Source: Escherichia coli
GTDB lineage: Bacteria; Pseudomonadota; Gammaproteobacteria; Enterobacterales; Enterobacteriaceae
DNA: 64,000 bases
NCBI RefSeq assembly: GCF_003334815.1
Contig: NZ_QOWO01000011.1
Reading direction: 5' to 3' (one strand)
Shown: one piece after another, positions 10,667 through 18,127 of the stretch
Position numbering within the stretch: position 1 is the first letter of the stretch
Layout: every line of letters begins with the position of its first letter
The notes under the pieces: generated by a model
What the model saw: only the letters and a program-made list of their open reading frames with translations
Database searches by the model: none
Told to the model about the DNA's origin: nothing
Program-made: the position numbers and the translations under genes

Positions 10667-11545
10667 TTACTGACTCGCCGCAGCCAACTCTTCTTCTGAC
10701 AGCCCGGTAAAGCGCATGATGTCTGCAAGAGGAACTCCGGATTCAAGCATTATTTTGGCTATATGCAGGGCTTTGGATTGTTCCCCCTCCTGCCGCAATC
10801 TTTCCGCAATAGTCATTAAACTCTCCTTGTGTTTCGGTGAACGTTCGGCAACGCCGTCGATAAAATCGTTAAAACGTACAGCGTCGCCAGTTTGCAGTAT
10901 GTAATTAAACAGCCCTTTGATTTGTCTGTCATTAGCGTATCCACTACTTAATAAGCAGGCCATTTGCTCTACCAGCCCCATCAGGTCGCGTTGACGAATA
11001 TGTTTTTGAATTAACTCCAGCAGCGCCATACGTCGGTGCTGCATGATTTCATCATCAGGCATGACGGTGACATCAATCAGCGGAAATGCGGAGGCATAAA
11101 GCTGCCTTGCCAGTTTGGGATCGGCGAAACAATCCAGCCAACACAGCGAATAGGGATAGGGGCTTTCAATACCGTGGTAAAACAACAATGGCACCACCAT
11201 CGGCAACGTTTTGTATCCAGCATCAAGGTGATTTTGCATTGCGGCAATAGCGTAACGCATCATGCGAAATGCGATCAGTTTGTTTGAGGTGCTTTGATGT
11301 TCAATCAGACAATAGATGTATCCTGGTCCTTGTTCCGTTTTCACCGACCACAGCACATCGGAATAGCTTTCACGCAGATCGTCATCAATAAAGCTGCTCG
11401 ACTCCAGCTTGAGGGTTTTCATATCACAAAGCGCGTGAATGGGTGCCGGTAAATGAAACGCAAGAAAATCACGAGCCGTGTCCGGTTGGCGTAAAAAGAG
11501 TTTGAACAGCGCATCGTGTGGGGTGGAACTCTGCTTTTTGCTCAT
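10667..11545 (-). CDS. rpnA: Recombination-promoting nuclease RpnA (transposase_31/PDDEXK-like family)
   Basis: 292-aa [36 protein letters not shown], matches YhgA; no flanking inverted repeats. Confidence 0.9.
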
Positions 11546-11690
11546 GGCGTTCCTTCACCTGTTGTTTGAATGCCGCGACTCTACGCGCCACTCCACACCT
11601 GTGTATTAGCGAGTTTTCATCCCTGCGAGATGCTTTCAAAGGAACTTACGCCGTGCTGCAAGAGTTGCATTTTTATGGAAAGCCGCACGC

Positions 11691-11722
11691 AAAAAAGCCC
11701 GGATGCAGACGCATACCGGGCT
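11691..11722 (-). terminator. Rho-independent terminator downstream of feoC
   Basis: Stem gcccgg/ccgggc (11697-11702 and 11716-11721) followed on minus strand by TTTTTT (complement of 11691-11696); about 27 bp past feoC stop. Confidence 0.7.
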
Positions 11723-11747
11723 TTCCAAAACAGGCGATGGAGTAAGG

Positions 11748-11984
11748 TTAACGCAGCGCCCACCACTCGCGCAGACAGGCTTTTCCTTCCGGGCAGCTTT
11801 TACAACTGCCAGAGAGGCAGCCGTCAGGTTCTTCCTGAATCCGCACGGCTTTGCCCATACTTTCCAGTTGTTGCAGCATGGCGTTAATCATTGGCTGTGG
11901 AGTGTTCAATGTCTGGCTTATCTGGGCCGCTTCCATACGGCCCCGTAACGCCAGCAAATCGCGCACCTGAATAAGTGAAGCCAT
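11748..11984 (-). CDS. feoC: Ferrous iron transport protein FeoC (winged-helix, Cys-rich)
   Basis: Track ORF trimmed to ATG at 11982-11984 giving 78 aa [21 protein letters not shown]...[15 protein letters not shown]; start overlaps feoB stop by 1 nt (TAATG). Confidence 0.9.
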
Positions 11985-14305
11985 TAATGGCAATCACCGG
12001 TGGTGCTGGCTGCGCAGCAACTGCTTACCGACTTGCGGGTTGCCAGCAGTTCGATATCCACCCGGCTACGCGCGCGGCGCAGCAGACCGATAACCACGAT
12101 GTTAAACAGGATAACCGCCAGAATGCACACCAGGCTGTAAGTTGGATGCTGACTGTAGCTGGCGACCTGATAGAACAATGTTGCCAGTGAGTAAGCGATA
12201 TTCAGCCCCCACAGGATGGAGAAGCCCATCCAGCCACGGCTTGATTCACGGGCGATAGCCCCCATCACCGAGATACATGGTACATACAGCAGGACGAAAA
12301 TCAGGTAGCTGTAAGCTGCTGCTGCGCTACCGAATTTCTGATCCATCACGCCCATCGCCCCGGTACCCATTTCGCCGTCGCCTTTGCTGGCTTCAATGGG
12401 GTTCATCAGTACGCTAAGGCTGAAGGTGTCTTTCAGGCTCTGCCAGGTTTCATCTATCGCACTGAACAGCTCTTCACCGAGGTTAAATTCTGCCGGATTG
12501 AACTCTTCGTCCTGAATATTTTCTGCGGTGTAGAGGGTGTTGAGCGTACCCACTACCACTTCTTTCGCCATGGCACCTGTAAACAGGCCAACCGTTGCCT
12601 GCCAGTTATCTTCATGCACGCCAATTGGCTTGAAGACCGGGGTGATCACCCGGCTGACGGACGCCAGCGCCGAGTCGTTGATGTTATCGACGATTTTCCC
12701 GCTCAGCGAGAAGCTGTTGAAAGCGCTCAGGAAAATGCTGACGATGATGATCACTTTACCAGCACGCAGAACGAAGCCTTTCAGACGCTGCCAGGTCTGG
12801 ATAATCAGGCTTTTAACGTGTGGTACATGATAGACCGGCAACTCCATGACAAACGGCGTCGCTTCACCGCGCATGATGGTGTACTTGAGCATCAGGCCAG
12901 TCAGCACCGCCATCACAATACCCAGCATATACAGCGAGAAGACCGCCAGCGCACCGTTCTGCCCGAAGAAGGCAGCCGCGAATACTGCGAAGATAGCCAG
13001 ACGCGCGCCGCAGGACATAAACGGTGCCATCATGATGGTCATCAGACGTTCACGCGGTGCATCAAGCGTACGTGCACCCATTACCGACGGTACGTTACAA
13101 CCGAAACCGACGATCAGCGGCACAAAGGATTTCCCCGGCAAGCCCAGCGCCTGCATCAGACGGTCCATCACAAACGCCGCACGCGCCATATACCCGGAGT
13201 CCTCAAGGAAGGAGAGGAACAGGTACATCATGCCAATCTGCGGCACCAGTGGCAGCACGGTGTTAATGCCGCCACCCAGGCCCTGGGCGAGGAAGATAGT
13301 CAGCCAGTCCGGGAAGTGGAGCGTGTAGCCAATCCATTGAATACCATGCACAAATAGCGCCACGGAGCCGACGTCAAACAGCGGCTGTAACGCCCCGCCG
13401 ATGTTGATAGCCAGCAGGAACATCAGGTACATCACAAAGAGGAAAATCGGCAGACCGAGGAAACGGTTGAGCACGATTTTATCTACCGCAGTGGTGAAAC
13501 GGCTGGGTTCTGCCGTCAGGGTGTTGCTTACCACATCACAGATGGCAGCAATGCACTGGTAACGCGCATCGGCAATGTGCAGCGCCGGATCGTCCATCTC
13601 ATTACGCAGACGGGCGAGGGCGGCATCCAGATGCTGCGACGCTTCACCGGCGTAGGCGCGGCTGTAGATATCGCCTTCCAGCATTTGCAGGCCCAGCCAG
13701 CGACGTTGTTTCAGCGGGATGTCGGAAGGCATCACTTTTGCCAGTGAATCTGCTTCGTTGAGCAGCGGCTGTGCGTAATGCACCAGTTCCACATTCTCGT
13801 TAGCTTTATAGCGATCAATCGCCAGCTTGAGCGCTTCAATACCGCGACCACGGGTTGAAACCAGCGGGATCACCGGACAGCCCAGACGCGCCGACAGAGC
13901 ATCAATTTCAATACGAATATTTTGCTTCTCGGCAATGTCGAGCATGTTCAGTGCCACAATGCAGGGAATGCCGAGTTCCAGCAGTTGTAGCGTCAGGTAC
14001 AGGTTACGCTCAAGGTTAGACGCATCCACCACGTTAATCAGCAGGTCGGCGTCGCCACTCAAAATGTAGTGACAGGCGATTTGCTCATCGAGCGAGGTCT
14101 GCGATGAGATGGTGGTCAGAGAATAGGTGCCGGGCAGGTCCACCAGCGTGACCTGATGATCGGTGGTGGAGAATTGCCCTTCTTTACGTTCGACGGTAAC
14201 GCCAGCCCAGTTACCTACACGCTGACGTGAGCCAGTGAGCTGGTTAAATAACGTTGTCTTGCCAGAATTTGGATTACCAATTAAGCCAATGGTTAATTTT
14301 TTCAT
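11984..14305 (-). CDS. feoB: Ferrous iron transporter FeoB (N-terminal GTPase plus membrane permease)
   Basis: Track ORF trimmed to ATG 14303-14305 giving 773 aa [25 protein letters not shown] (G1 motif). Confidence 0.96.
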
Positions 14306-14321
14306 TGTTGTTATCACCGTA

Positions 14322-14549
14322 TTAACAGGAAACCGCTTCCACTTCTAATAAGGCCAGATCTTTTTTGCGTAATACCAGGCTCACACGACGGGTTTCGATA
14401 TGAATGGGGTCGCCGAGTGGAGCGACGCGCACCACATTAAAAGAGGAGCCAGGTAACATGCCAAGAGAAAGCAGTTTTTGGCGATATGCCGGGCTGATTT
14501 CACGGGAAAAGCCAGTGATTTTCCACGCAGTATCTGGAGTGTATTGCAT
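14322..14549 (-). CDS. feoA: Ferrous iron transport protein FeoA
   Basis: 75-aa [37 protein letters not shown]. Confidence 0.95.
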
Positions 14550-14659
14550 AGGTGCCTACTTGTTTCTCATTAACTGGATAACTACCTCATGGGGCGTTTG
14601 ACAGCGACATGAGACCAGATGATTTGCCAACAAAGGAGAGATTAAATAATCAACAACAC

Positions 14660-14684
14660 AATGATAATGAGAATGGTTTCTATC
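14660..14684. promoter_or_regulatory. Putative Fur box in feoA promoter
   Basis: tgataatgagaatggtttctatc resembles Fur consensus GATAATGATAATCATTATC; about 110 bp upstream of feoA ATG. Confidence 0.55.
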
Positions 14685-14737
14685 AGCAATACTTAAAATG
14701 TGTGCGAATGTTGGTTTGAATAATAATCTGACTCAAT

Positions 14738-14751
14738 GTTGATGTGGCTCA
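14738..14751. promoter_or_regulatory. Putative FNR site in feoA promoter
   Basis: ttgatgtggctcaa matches TTGAT-N4-ATCAA in 9 of 10 positions; upstream of the Fur box relative to feoA. Confidence 0.4.
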
Positions 14752-14880
14752 AGGTTATATCGCAGCGAAAATATAATTCGAATAGTGAATTACCCGGACT
14801 GGCTAATGTTTAATTAAGGTTTCAGTTGTTAATGAAATGATAAATATTGCCGGAATATATTATGAGTTTGGCTGTGGAAT

Positions 14881-14912
14881 AAAAATGCCGGAGATATTCT
14901 CCGGCACTTTTA
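14881..14912. terminator. Bidirectional hairpin terminator downstream of yhgF
   Basis: aaaaatgccggagatattctccggcacttttat: stem gccggag/ctccggc flanked by A-run and T-run. Confidence 0.65.
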
Positions 14913-14930
14913 TGTCAGGCAAGGCGTTCG

Positions 14931-14967
14931 TTGCCAGATGCGGCGTGAACGCCTTATCTGCCCTACG
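14931..14967. repeat. REP-like element
   Basis: ttgccagatgcggcgtgaacgccttatctgccctacg, a degenerate REP; a second partial REP (cgtaggccagtacgggcg) overlaps the yhgF stop. Confidence 0.6.
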
Positions 14968-15005
14968 ATTTCGTGCAAATTCGAACCGTAGGCCAGTACG
15001 GGCGT

Positions 15006-17327
15006 TTAACGTTTTTTGCCCATTGCCGCCGCCAGCGCATCCATCATCGCGCTATTACCGGCAGGCTGCGCTTCACGACCGCGTGGTTTGGCTGCCGGGC
15101 GGTTGTTTTGCGGGCGTTCATTACCGCCGCCGCGACGAGCGTTGGTTTCGCCAGGCTGCTCATCCAGGCGCATAGTCAGGGCGATACGTTTACGCTGAAG
15201 ATCCACTTCCAGCACTTTCACCTTCACAATGTCGCCCGCTTTCACCACGGTATGCGGATCTTCCACAAACTTGTTCGACAATGAAGAGATGTGAACCAGG
15301 CCGTCCTGATGCACGCCAATATCGACAAACGCGCCAAAGTTGGTGACGTTGGTCACTGCGCCTTCGAGGATCATACCCGGTTGCAGGTCGTTCATTGTCT
15401 CGACGCCATCGGCAAACTGAGCGGTTTTAAATTCCGGACGCGGATCGCGACCCGGTTTTTCCAGCTCTTTGATGATGTCGGTTACCGTCGGCACACCGAA
15501 TTTCTCATCAGTAAAGTCAGACGCTTTCAGGTTACGCAGTTCGCTGCTGTTACCCATCAGATCTTTCAGTGCCTGCTGTGTTGCTGCCAGAATGCGTTCC
15601 ACCACCGGATAGGCTTCCGGGTGAACGGTAGACGCGTCCAGCGGGTTATCACCGTGGTTAATGCGCAAGAAGCCCGCGCACTGCTCGAAGGCTTTCGGCC
15701 CCAGACGGCTCACTTTTAACAGTTGCTGACGGTTCTGGAACTGACCGTTCTCATCGCGCCAGGCAACGATGTTTTGCGCCATCATGCGCGTCAGGCCCGC
15801 CACGCGGGTTAACAGCGGAACAGAAGCAGTGTTGAGATCGACGCCAACGGCGTTTACGCAGTCTTCTACTACTGCGTCCAGTTTGCGGGCCAGTTGCGTC
15901 TGGCTGACGTCATGCTGATACTGACCTACGCCGATAGATTTCGGATCGATTTTCACCAGCTCCGCCAGCGGATCCTGCAAACGGCGGGCGATAGACACCG
16001 CGCCACGCAGCGAAACGTCGAGATCCGGGAACTCCTGTGCAGCCAGCTCGGAAGCCGAGTAAACCGACGCGCCTGCTTCGCTGACGATTACTTTCTGCGC
16101 GGTCACTTTCGGGAACTGCTTCTGCACATCGAGATAGAAACGCTCAGTTTCGCGGGAAGCTGTACCGTTACCGATCGCTACCAGTTCAACGTTATGTTTT
16201 TCACACAGCGCAGCAACGGTCATCGCTGCTTTTGCGGCCTGTCCGGTGTGCGGGTAAATGGTGTCGGTCGCCACCAGTTTGCCAGTGGCATCGACCACCG
16301 CCACTTTTACCCCAGTACGCAGACCCGGATCGAGGCCCATCGTTGCACGCAGTCCGGCAGGGGCCGCCATCAGCAGATCGTGCAGGTTACGGGCAAAGAC
16401 GTTGATTGCTTCATCTTCCGCACGTTCGCGCACGGTGCCCATCAGTTCGGTTTCCAGATGCATCAGCACCTTGATGCGCCACGTCCAGCTCACCACGCCT
16501 TTGCGCCAGCTATCCGCCGGGGCATTGTTCAGGCGCAGGCCAAGGTGATCCATGATGATTTGCTCGCAATAGCTCTCTTTGGGCGGCTCATCGAACTGTG
16601 GATCGGCATTCAGCGAAAGCTGAAGTACGCCTTCGTTACGCCCACGGAACATCGCCAGCGCGCGGTGAGAAGGCACCGTGGACAACGGTTCGTGATGATC
16701 GAAATAGTCGCGGAATTTCGCCCCTTCCTCTTCTTTACCGCTCACCACCGTAGAAACCAAATGCGCGTTCTTCCACAGATAATCACGCACTTTCGCCAGC
16801 AGCGCGGCATCTTCGGCAAACCGTTCCATCAGGATATAGCGCGCGCCATCCAGCGCGGCTTTGGTATCTGCCACGCCTTTATCGGCATCAACATATTGTG
16901 CAGCGGCGACTTCTGGCGTGTGTGACGGATCGCTCCACAGCAGGTCAGCCAACGGCTCAAGCCCTGCTTCAATGGCGATTTGCCCGCGGGTGCGGCGTTT
17001 AGGTTTGTAGGGCAGGTAGAGGTCTTCGAGTTCGGTTTTGCTTAGGGTGGCGTTGATGGCCTTCGCCAGATCATCGGTGAGTTTGCCTTGCTCGGAAATG
17101 GACTTGAGGATCGCCTGACGTCTCTCTTCCAGCTCGCGCAGATAGCTCAGACGCGTTTCCAGATTACGCAGCTGCGTGTCATCCAGACCGCCGGTGATTT
17201 CCTTACGATAACGTGCGATAAACGGCACGGTATTCCCTTCGTCAAGCAGGCGAACGGCAGCGTCAACCTGTTCCGGGCGCGCCTGAATTTCACCCGCAAT
17301 AATGCGGCAGAACGAATCATTCATCAT
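15006..17327 (-). CDS. yhgF: Transcription accessory protein Tex/YhgF (S1 RNA-binding domain at C-terminus)
   Basis: 773-aa [46 protein letters not shown], Tex family hallmark. Confidence 0.95.
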
Positions 17328-17900: not shown

Positions 17901-18127
17901 CTCGTTGATTCCCTTTGTCTGTTTGATAATGCGCACATTGGGTATAACGTGATCATATCAACAGAATCAATAATGTTTCGCCGAATAAATTGTATACTTA
18001 AGCTGCTGTTTAATATGCTTTGTAACAATTTAGGCTGAAATTCATACCAGATTTAGCTGGTGACGAACGTGAGCTTTTTTAAGAATACACGCTTACAAAT
18101 TGTTGCGAACCTTTGGGAGTACAAACA

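Follow-up and report, generated by a model that had tools for sequence, protein, structure and literature searches.

The feoABC control region of Escherichia coli: a promoter under a Fur site, a far-upstream FNR site and two forms of the feoB/feoC junction

The DNA analysed here (the window, meaning the whole stretch of 64,000 nt) contains the promoter and operon of E. coli feoABC, whose control region is already well studied. Our reading of the whole, to which we give a probability of roughly 0.85, is of a sigma-70 promoter that would be occluded by Fur, an FNR site that would activate from upstream, ArcA-P and OmpR bound further upstream still, an intrinsic terminator after the last gene and a probable, partial coupling of feoC translation to that of feoB. 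Published data, mapped here onto the window, place Fur and FNR occupancy, the transcription start and ArcA and OmpR binding in this region and establish Fur-dependent repression. Every site that a preliminary description had flagged from the letters of this stretch had already been mapped experimentally, and the biology is known: the sequence is identical to the same locus in K-12 (Kammler 1993; Mendoza-Vargas 2009; Myers 2013; Park 2013; Seo/Gao ChIP-exo; Gerken 2020), and the FNR 14-mer, the Fur footprint, the start site and the ArcA/OmpR site all match that literature, with no differences. As a textbook example of combined control by iron (Fur) and oxygen (FNR, ArcA), the promoter has little weight as a discovery, and all that is added here to knowledge of K-12 feoABC is the conservation of its sites, and of the FNR spacing, across species.

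In the proposed scheme, the sigma-70 promoter (-35 TTGCTG, 17-nt spacer, -10 TATCAT) drives transcription from position 14654. When iron is plentiful, Fur-Fe2+ occupies a hexamer array across the -35, spacer and -10 (14654-14687) and represses the operon, presumably by excluding RNA polymerase. When oxygen is absent, an FNR dimer occupies TTGAG-N4-ATCAA about 91.5 bp 5' of the start, a distance that leaves only upstream (class I-type) activation possible and from which FNR would most likely contact the C-terminal domain of the alpha subunit of RNA polymerase; ArcA-P, with OmpR on the same DNA at about -192 to -172, would add further activation. Sitting on the core promoter, Fur would override the activators, so that induction would require iron and oxygen to be scarce at the same time. 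The transcript comprises a 105-nt leader, feoA, feoB and feoC and ends at the strong intrinsic terminator at 11722..11691. Since the final base of the feoB stop codon is also the first base of the feoC start codon (UAAUG), feoC would probably be translated in part by restarting feoB ribosomes, with GGUGAU, 8 nt upstream of the feoC ATG, assisting reinitiation.

The locus, its core promoter and the Fur operator

Positions 11212-15212 of the window match NC_000913.3 3539500-3543500 exactly, which is the yhgF-feoABC-rpnA region of E. coli K-12 MG1655 (minus strand), and the minus-strand gene order is yhgF (tex), feoA, feoB, feoC and rpnA. The intergenic DNA between yhgF and feoA is 100% identical to that of K-12 MG1655 and several other strains, and was matched in every complete E. 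coli genome searched (5,426/5,426). Coordinates (g) in NC_000913.3 were converted to window positions (w) by w = 15212 - (g - 3539500). Many papers use the older U00096.2 coordinates, for which an offset of 1978 to NC_000913.3 was validated at three sites with printed sequences (the FNR motifs of feoA and nirB and the ArcA site). A 50-bp difference in length between the window and NC_000913.3 lies somewhere between 15212 and 60810; it accounts for an apparent 50-bp displacement of the nirB site, for which the offset is not to blame. For the comparison across species, feoA loci were fetched from 80 Enterobacteriaceae species (the genera sampled include Escherichia, Citrobacter, Salmonella, Klebsiella, Kluyvera, Enterobacter, Raoultella, Kosakonia and Cedecea) and the 330 nt 5' of feoA were aligned, giving 78 distinct sequences with a mean identity to E. 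coli of 0.54 over the aligned region. The genes and core promoter elements are as follows.

11748..11984, minus strand: feoC, 78 aa, PF09012 (RefSeq annotation)
11984..14305, minus strand: feoB, 773 aa, with GGTGAT 7 nt before its ATG (RefSeq annotation)
14322..14549, minus strand: feoA, 75 aa (RefSeq annotation)
14654, minus strand: transcription start site, 105 nt 5' of the feoA ATG (454 sequencing of 5' ends; Mendoza-Vargas 2009)
14661..14666, minus strand: -10 hexamer TATCAT, at -12..-7 from the start (Mendoza-Vargas 2009)
14684..14689, minus strand: -35 hexamer TTGCTG, at -35..-30 from the start (Mendoza-Vargas 2009)

Mendoza-Vargas 2009 (PMC2760140) mapped the feoA 5' end to -105 relative to the ATG (window position 14654) and assigned a -35 element within GTATTGCTG and a -10 element within ATTATCAT, separated by 17 nt. 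This start comes from high-throughput data, apparently from one 454 read (the count column gives '1'), and the oxygen conditions of the cells are unconfirmed. Independently, the position '-191 to -171' from the mapped start that Park 2013 (PMC3798270) gave for an ArcA site implies a start at window position 14655. The start-site tables of Kim 2012 that were searched list no feoA entry, and a generic promoter scan missed the mapped promoter because its -35 matches at only 3/6 positions. In all species aligned (78/78), the mapped -10 matches TATAAT at 4/6 positions or better, with A2 and T6. Mean identity is 0.97 for the -10 hexamer, 0.83 for the -35 hexamer (its TTG is conserved, and TTGATG is the form in most species) and 0.93 for the 17-nt spacer. 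Since the spacer of a sigma-70 promoter has no intrinsic reason to be conserved, a value of 0.93 suggests that a protein, Fur, binds within it, and an overlapping repressor site can thus be recognised by comparison of sequences alone.

14654..14687, no strand assigned: primary Fur operator, a hexamer array CACAAT-GATAAT-GAGAAT (plus strand, 14657-14674, extending to 14681) inside the ChIP-exo footprint
14719..14737, no strand assigned: secondary predicted Fur cluster, at about -74 (10.5-bit site of Chen 2007 at 3538006, window 14728)

The Fur box proposed in the preliminary description (14684..14660, minus-strand sequence GATAGAAACCATTCTCATTATCATT) agrees with both published occupancy and published prediction. 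A feoA Fur ChIP-exo peak at 3538047-3538080, found in iron-replete cells only (Gao et al. 2023, PMC10164565, supplementary file 3), maps to window 14654-14687 and encloses the box, and overlapping Fur sites of 10.9 and 13.4 bits were predicted at 3538059 and 3538065, which are window positions 14675 and 14669 (Chen et al. 2007, PMC2189734). Relative to the start at 14654, the footprint runs from -33 to +1 and covers part of the -35, the spacer and the -10, a classical geometry that would block RNA polymerase, and a feoA-lacZ fusion is repressed by Fur anaerobically (Beauchene et al. 2015); from the position of the footprint we infer that repression works by occlusion. Judged from its letters alone, the site is modest to moderate rather than strong, and weak by the classical consensus, but non-random. 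The classical 19-bp Fur consensus had no match at three or fewer mismatches anywhere in the 64-kb window; the best local 19-mers score 13/19 in two registers 6 bp apart (14657-14675 and 14663-14681), a score of at least 13 being found at only 20 of the roughly 128,000 window positions; and a threefold (N)ATWAT array with up to two mismatches turns up only once in the 64 kb (14658-14674), the expected number being 0.24.

Kammler et al. 1993 annotated two Fur boxes, and each of the clusters predicted by Chen 2007 (PMC2189734) is said there to coincide with one of them. The second of them lies outside the ChIP-exo footprint and has a mean identity of only 0.54, so that we treat it as a weak candidate. 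Neither this weaker cluster, near 14728, nor the site of ArcA and OmpR (14826-14846) was noticed in the preliminary description.

The FNR site and its distance from the promoter

14739..14752, no strand assigned: FNR binding site, TTGAG-CCAC-ATCAA in feo sense, centre 14745.5 (position weight matrix and ChIP-seq peak)

The preliminary description had also noticed an FNR-like palindrome; it is a real site, with the coordinates shifted by one, the 14-mer occupying 14739-14752 (TTGATGTGGCTCAA) and not 14738-14751. In feo sense it reads TTGAGCCACATCAA at 14752..14739, and in this form it is listed 5' of feoA in Table S6 of Myers et al. 2013 (PMC3688515), with a PatSer score of 14.6 and an ln p of -13.13 (threshold -10.75), and is marked at an FNR ChIP-seq peak; the summit of that peak (3537996) corresponds to roughly position 14738 of the window. 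The 14-mer has one mismatch to TTGAT-N4-ATCAA, and seven such sites occur in the window against 2.3 expected, so a single one would be unremarkable without other evidence. The other evidence consists of occupancy and conservation. An FNR-like site with at most two mismatches lies upstream of the promoter in 72/78 species; mean identity is 0.92 and 0.93 in the two half-sites, 0.60 in the 4-nt spacer between them and 0.26-0.35 in the flanks (78 species); and in 70 of the 72 species that have such a site, the predicted start lies 90.5 or 91.5 bp from the FNR centre.

The sites had further been described as arranged as expected, which holds for Fur, lying over the core promoter in the classical manner, but is inexact for FNR, whose centre is at -91.5 from the start at 14654 (-90.5 if the start is 14655) rather than at the usual -41.5. 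Among FNR-activated promoters with a known start, 19/23 have the site at -41.5 +/- 4 and very few have it at -61.5 or beyond (Myers 2013, PMC3688515), and the feoA centre falls outside the former, class II, range. With class II promoters (nirB, narG, dmsA and others, at -41.5) feoA has the regulator and its recognition sequence in common; the feoA site differs in lying about 50 bp further upstream, and therefore cannot overlap the -35 or contact region 4 of sigma-70, and in having no conserved -10 at the class II position. A perfect FNR site 5' of nirB is present in the same window, at 60810-60823. There is a likeness to class I promoters of the FNR/CRP type, such as the natural ydjXYZ (-60.5), in that the feoA site lies well upstream of -60; its spacing is conserved, as would be expected of class I if helical phase matters.

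The conserved distance between FNR site and promoter suggests class I-type activation, and we consider FNR most likely to be an upstream activator of this type acting from about -91.5, with a contact to the alpha C-terminal domain that we infer from this position; a search of the literature for alpha C-terminal domain data on feoA found none. Wing and co-workers reportedly worked, in 1995, with synthetic promoters in which FNR sites were placed at about -61.5, -71.5, -82.5 and -92.5. The feoA site is within 1 bp of the last position in that series, which we take to be competent for activation. Very few natural class I-type FNR promoters are known, and feoA, as a rare natural promoter with FNR far upstream (at about -91.5 in some 70 species), would be a convenient one in which to study FNR class I activation.

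Among the competing accounts of these sites, one would treat the Fur-box and FNR-like sequences as chance matches in AT-rich intergenic DNA. The Fur match of only 13/19 and the roughly 2.3 one-mismatch FNR sites expected per window would be in keeping with it, but this reading is ruled out: both sites coincide with published in-vivo occupancy (ChIP) and both are islands of at least 90% conservation in poorly conserved DNA. The two checks proposed with the preliminary description gave the same outcome, matrix scores being above threshold (FNR as given above; Fur 10.9 and 13.4 bits) and neither the FNR peak summit near 14738 nor the Fur footprint at 14654-14687 mapping elsewhere. A different proposal has FNR acting in the conventional class II manner, from -41.5, at a second promoter that is used only anaerobically and starts near 14704, the start at 14654 belonging to an FNR-independent promoter. 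This would bring feoA into line with the class II majority (19/23) and would draw on the origin of the 14654 start in what is apparently one read from cells of unconfirmed oxygen status. We nevertheless consider it very improbable because the hexamer at -12..-7 of the putative 14704 promoter is AACCAA in E. coli, because a 3/6 match with A2 and T6 (+/-1) is found at the class II -10 position in only 12/70 species against 78/78 for the mapped -10, because the DNA at 14718-14692 is only 0.60 conserved, and because the distance from the FNR site to the mapped promoter is fixed within 1 bp in 70/72 species.

A centre at -91.5 is a weak activating position at class I promoters, and this favours a further reading in which FNR is bound but has little or no transcriptional role, the anaerobic induction of feoABC being due mainly to ArcA-P (with OmpR) and to changes in Fur activity. 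Such a reading would also accommodate the 3.7-fold fall in feoABC on deletion of arcA (Park 2013), published sigma-70 occupancy at the feoA promoter that shows no oxygen-dependent change, and the finding that feoA has no FNR-dependent change in expression in iron-replete glucose medium (Myers 2013, PMC3688515), although the authors of the last explain the missing effect by masking through Fur. We regard it as unlikely, since the strong conservation of the FNR half-sites and of their spacing across 70 species argues for selection on function, since several papers, where they touch on feo, credit Kammler 1993 with its activation by FNR, and since Myers 2013 (PMC3688515) lists feoA, after an earlier study, as FNR-activated in nitrate.

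Upstream DNA, leader and terminator

14826..14846, no strand assigned: ArcA-P binding site TTGTTAATGAAATGATAAATA (plus-strand letters), at -192..-172 (Park 2013, Tables S3/S4/S6)
14886..14906, minus strand: terminator-like hairpin 3' of yhgF (tex), GC-rich TGCCGGAGATATTCTCCGGCA, listed by the scan on the plus strand
14550..14653, minus strand: 5' untranslated leader, with the Shine-Dalgarno sequence AAGTAGG at 14561..14555
11691..11722, minus strand: intrinsic terminator after feoC, with stem GCCCGG/CCGGGC, an inner AUGC/GCAU stem and then U6

The ArcA site, U00096.2 3537888-3537908 (window 14846..14826), lies under ChIP peaks, and feoABC is 3.7-fold lower when arcA is deleted (Park 2013, PMC3798270). 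Gerken et al. 2020 (PMC7315122) found by EMSA that OmpR binds DNA that includes the motif at -294..-278 relative to the ATG; this motif corresponds to window 14843..14827 and overlaps the ArcA site. Mean identity across the 78 species is 0.72 for the ArcA site and 0.70 for the adjoining block 14819..14803. The feoABC promoter of Y. pestis has a proven Fur site at its sigma-70 promoter and predicted FNR and ArcA motifs; the region has two promoters, with no effect of FNR or ArcA, and there is no detectable similarity in sequence between the feo promoters of Y. pestis and E. coli (O'Connor et al. 2017), so the architecture described here seems limited to the Enterobacteriaceae in the narrow sense.

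Upstream of the ArcA site, the hairpin at 14886..14906, read by eye, presents on the minus strand a palindrome followed by ATTTTTATT, and this putative yhgF hairpin would insulate feoA from upstream read-through. In the leader, conservation is concentrated in the Shine-Dalgarno sequence (mean identity 0.94 across the 78 species), the remainder being poorly conserved, and members of the Enterobacter/Lelliottia/Leclercia clade have a leader of only about 34 nt. A search of 11500-15100 against Rfam returned no family at threshold. At permissive E-values there were sub-threshold matches, among them one to the REP-like naRNA4 at 14926-14963. Given only sub-threshold Rfam matches, poor conservation and the short leader of the Enterobacter clade, a structured leader or riboswitch was rejected, and neither Rfam nor conservation gave any sign of a regulatory RNA element in the feoA leader. 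At the other end of the operon, the strong terminator that the preliminary description had seen after feoC is borne out: the hairpin (11721..11697) and its U6 tract (11696..11691) lie 26 nt 3' of the feoC stop codon, and the fold has an energy of -25.2 kcal/mol (z = -3.65), which 0/200 shuffled sequences equalled.

Two forms of the feoB/feoC junction

11982..11986, minus strand: TAATG, in which the feoB stop and the feoC start overlap; the GGTGAT before it ends 8 nt from the feoC ATG

The feoB stop codon TAA (11986..11984) and the feoC ATG (11984..11982) share one base, as had been noted beforehand and as both the sequence and the RefSeq annotation confirm. This overlap is not conserved among relatives. 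Junctions were compared in Salmonella, Citrobacter rodentium, Kluyvera, Enterobacter, Trabulsiella, Lelliottia, Intestinirhabdus and E. albertii, and in all of them feoB ends in TGC or TGT followed by CAC and TAA (or TAG), with the stop codon running into a Shine-Dalgarno sequence (TAAGGAG, TAAGGCG, TAGGAG or TAAGGAC) and a gap of 8-12 nt before the feoC ATG, whereas about 11 nt are missing from the K-12 junction, TGC CAT TAATG. The proteins themselves are alike: in Salmonella, Citrobacter, Kluyvera, Enterobacter, E. albertii and E. coli 536, as in K-12, FeoB ends in GCH or NCH, FeoC begins with MAS and the two genes are tightly packed. Both arrangements occur within E. coli. The K-12-type overlap is present in 4,595/5,426 complete genomes (about 85%), and the other 831 (about 15%) have a junction of the E. 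albertii type (at least 90% match over 121 nt), which in the two inspected, E. coli 536 and 2013C-4282, has a 10-nt gap containing TAAGGA. Seen against these relatives, the TAATG overlap is a derived state that goes back to a recent deletion of about 11 nt, and E. coli is dimorphic for it. What the deletion removed was the ancestral TAAGGA Shine-Dalgarno sequence fused to the feoB stop codon.

K-12 feoC still has a Shine-Dalgarno-like motif after this loss; the idea that it might lack a usable one was given up because feoB uses the identical GGTGAT at nearly equal spacing (7 nt before its ATG, as against 8 nt for feoC). In K-12 this GGTGAT arises from a synonymous GGC-to-GGT change, which is absent in all ten of the ten spacer-type sequences. 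GGT stands at the junction in 4,588 of the overlap-type genomes and GGC in a single one, RMDEC465. The change would fit compensation after the deletion, and plain linkage explains it equally well. That the two are strictly tied was rejected on the evidence of RMDEC465, whose overlap with GGC means that deletion and GGC-to-GGT change are separable.

The preliminary description had taken the overlap to imply translational coupling. We consider it plausible, and somewhat more likely than not, that coupling between feoB and feoC makes at least a partial contribution in K-12-type strains; a search of the literature found no paper addressing feoB-feoC coupling. The overlap could instead be functionally inconsequential, with feoC initiating independently at GGUGAU and the deletion neutral, a view we hold to be a serious possibility but not the better one. 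It would accord with the presence of GGTGAT 8 nt before the feoC ATG and of the same motif 7 nt before that of feoB, with an ancestral junction that had a normal Shine-Dalgarno sequence and an 8-12-nt gap, and with the persistence of both forms in E. coli (4,595 and 831 genomes). Against it, UAAUG is the textbook arrangement for termination-reinitiation, and the GGTGAT lies inside the feoB coding sequence, so that access to it depends on feoB translation in any case; the GGC-to-GGT change that creates GGUGAU and accompanies the deletion in 4,588 genomes against one also counts against neutrality, with the caution that linkage accounts for it just as well.

If the deletion altered the amount of FeoC made per FeoB, K-12-type strains would differ in FeoC dosage from 536, Salmonella and Klebsiella. 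This we put forward tentatively and think rather doubtful; were it true, the difference in dosage could help to explain the disagreement from species to species over the roles of FeoC. The two junction forms within E. coli are relevant to comparisons between strains of FeoC phenotypes or of FeoB:FeoC stoichiometry.

Spacing and conservation upstream of feoA

The FNR site upstream of feoA (14739-14752) is centred at approximately -91.5, not -41.5, relative to the transcription start mapped at 14654. Across the feoA upstream loci of Enterobacteriaceae (L003-L082), 70 of 72 species keep the site at this distance from the start, give or take 1 bp, despite poor conservation of the intervening DNA. 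Downstream of the start, most genera have a predicted feoA leader of about 100-105 nt, but the prediction for the Enterobacter/Lelliottia/Leclercia/Silvania group (loci L040-L042, L048, L056, L060, L063, L069, L072, L073, L076-L079 and L081) is just 32-37 nt; thus, about 70 nt of the leader is dispensable. Two further elements lie upstream of the feoA start:

14719-14737: second predicted Fur cluster, weaker than the first and flanked by the FNR site and the -35
14803-14819, feo-sense strand: conserved 17-nt block, CCTTAATTAAACATTAG, adjoining the ArcA site

The predicted Fur cluster, one of two Fur boxes annotated by Kammler and scored at 10.5 bits (Chen 2007, PMC2189734), is only 54% conserved and does not fall within the published ChIP-exo footprint. 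Conservation of the 17-nt block reaches about 70% in the alignment of 78 species, and we found no published site assigned to it in the literature. On the + strand, the block includes TGTTTAATTAA, which is similar to an ArcA repeat.

The feoB/feoC junction and 5' ends within feoB

Comparison of loci L083-L096, from E. coli and relatives, and of complete genomes revealed two forms of the feoB/feoC junction (11982-11998) within E. coli: a TAATG overlap in 4,595 of 5,426 complete genomes, and the ancestral 10-nt spacer with TAAGGA, kept in the other form (831/5,426). The overlap type is almost always accompanied by a synonymous GGC-to-GGT change that makes GGTGAT (4,588 genomes versus 1). Two internal 5' ends, both weak and each with a sigma-70-like -10 element, have been reported at ~14021 (feoB +284) and ~12091 (Mendoza-Vargas 2009, PMC2760140); the latter lies inside feoB, 107 nt upstream of feoC, and could provide some feoC transcription without the main promoter.

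Sites elsewhere and relation to MG1655

Outside the feo operon, the following features were located:

14886-14906: terminator-like hairpin downstream of yhgF, after an naRNA4-like match (14926-14963)
60810-60823, + strand: perfect FNR consensus, TTGATGTAAATCAA, upstream of nirB

The naRNA4 match in Rfam is sub-threshold (32 bits versus a gathering score of 59.5), and we take it to be REP-like, naRNA4 being REP-derived. The FNR consensus is the known class II nirB site, with a score of 17.06 (Myers 2013, Table S6, PMC3688515). Coordinate mapping placed the published Fur ChIP-exo peak P103 (3534739-3534772), which is present in iron-starved and iron-replete cells alike, at 17962-17995 in the greB-ompR intergenic region. 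The feo region of the window is identical to that of MG1655 (NC_000913.3); the MG1655 sequence is 50 bp shorter somewhere between 15212 and 60810, and the window is therefore not MG1655 along its entire length.
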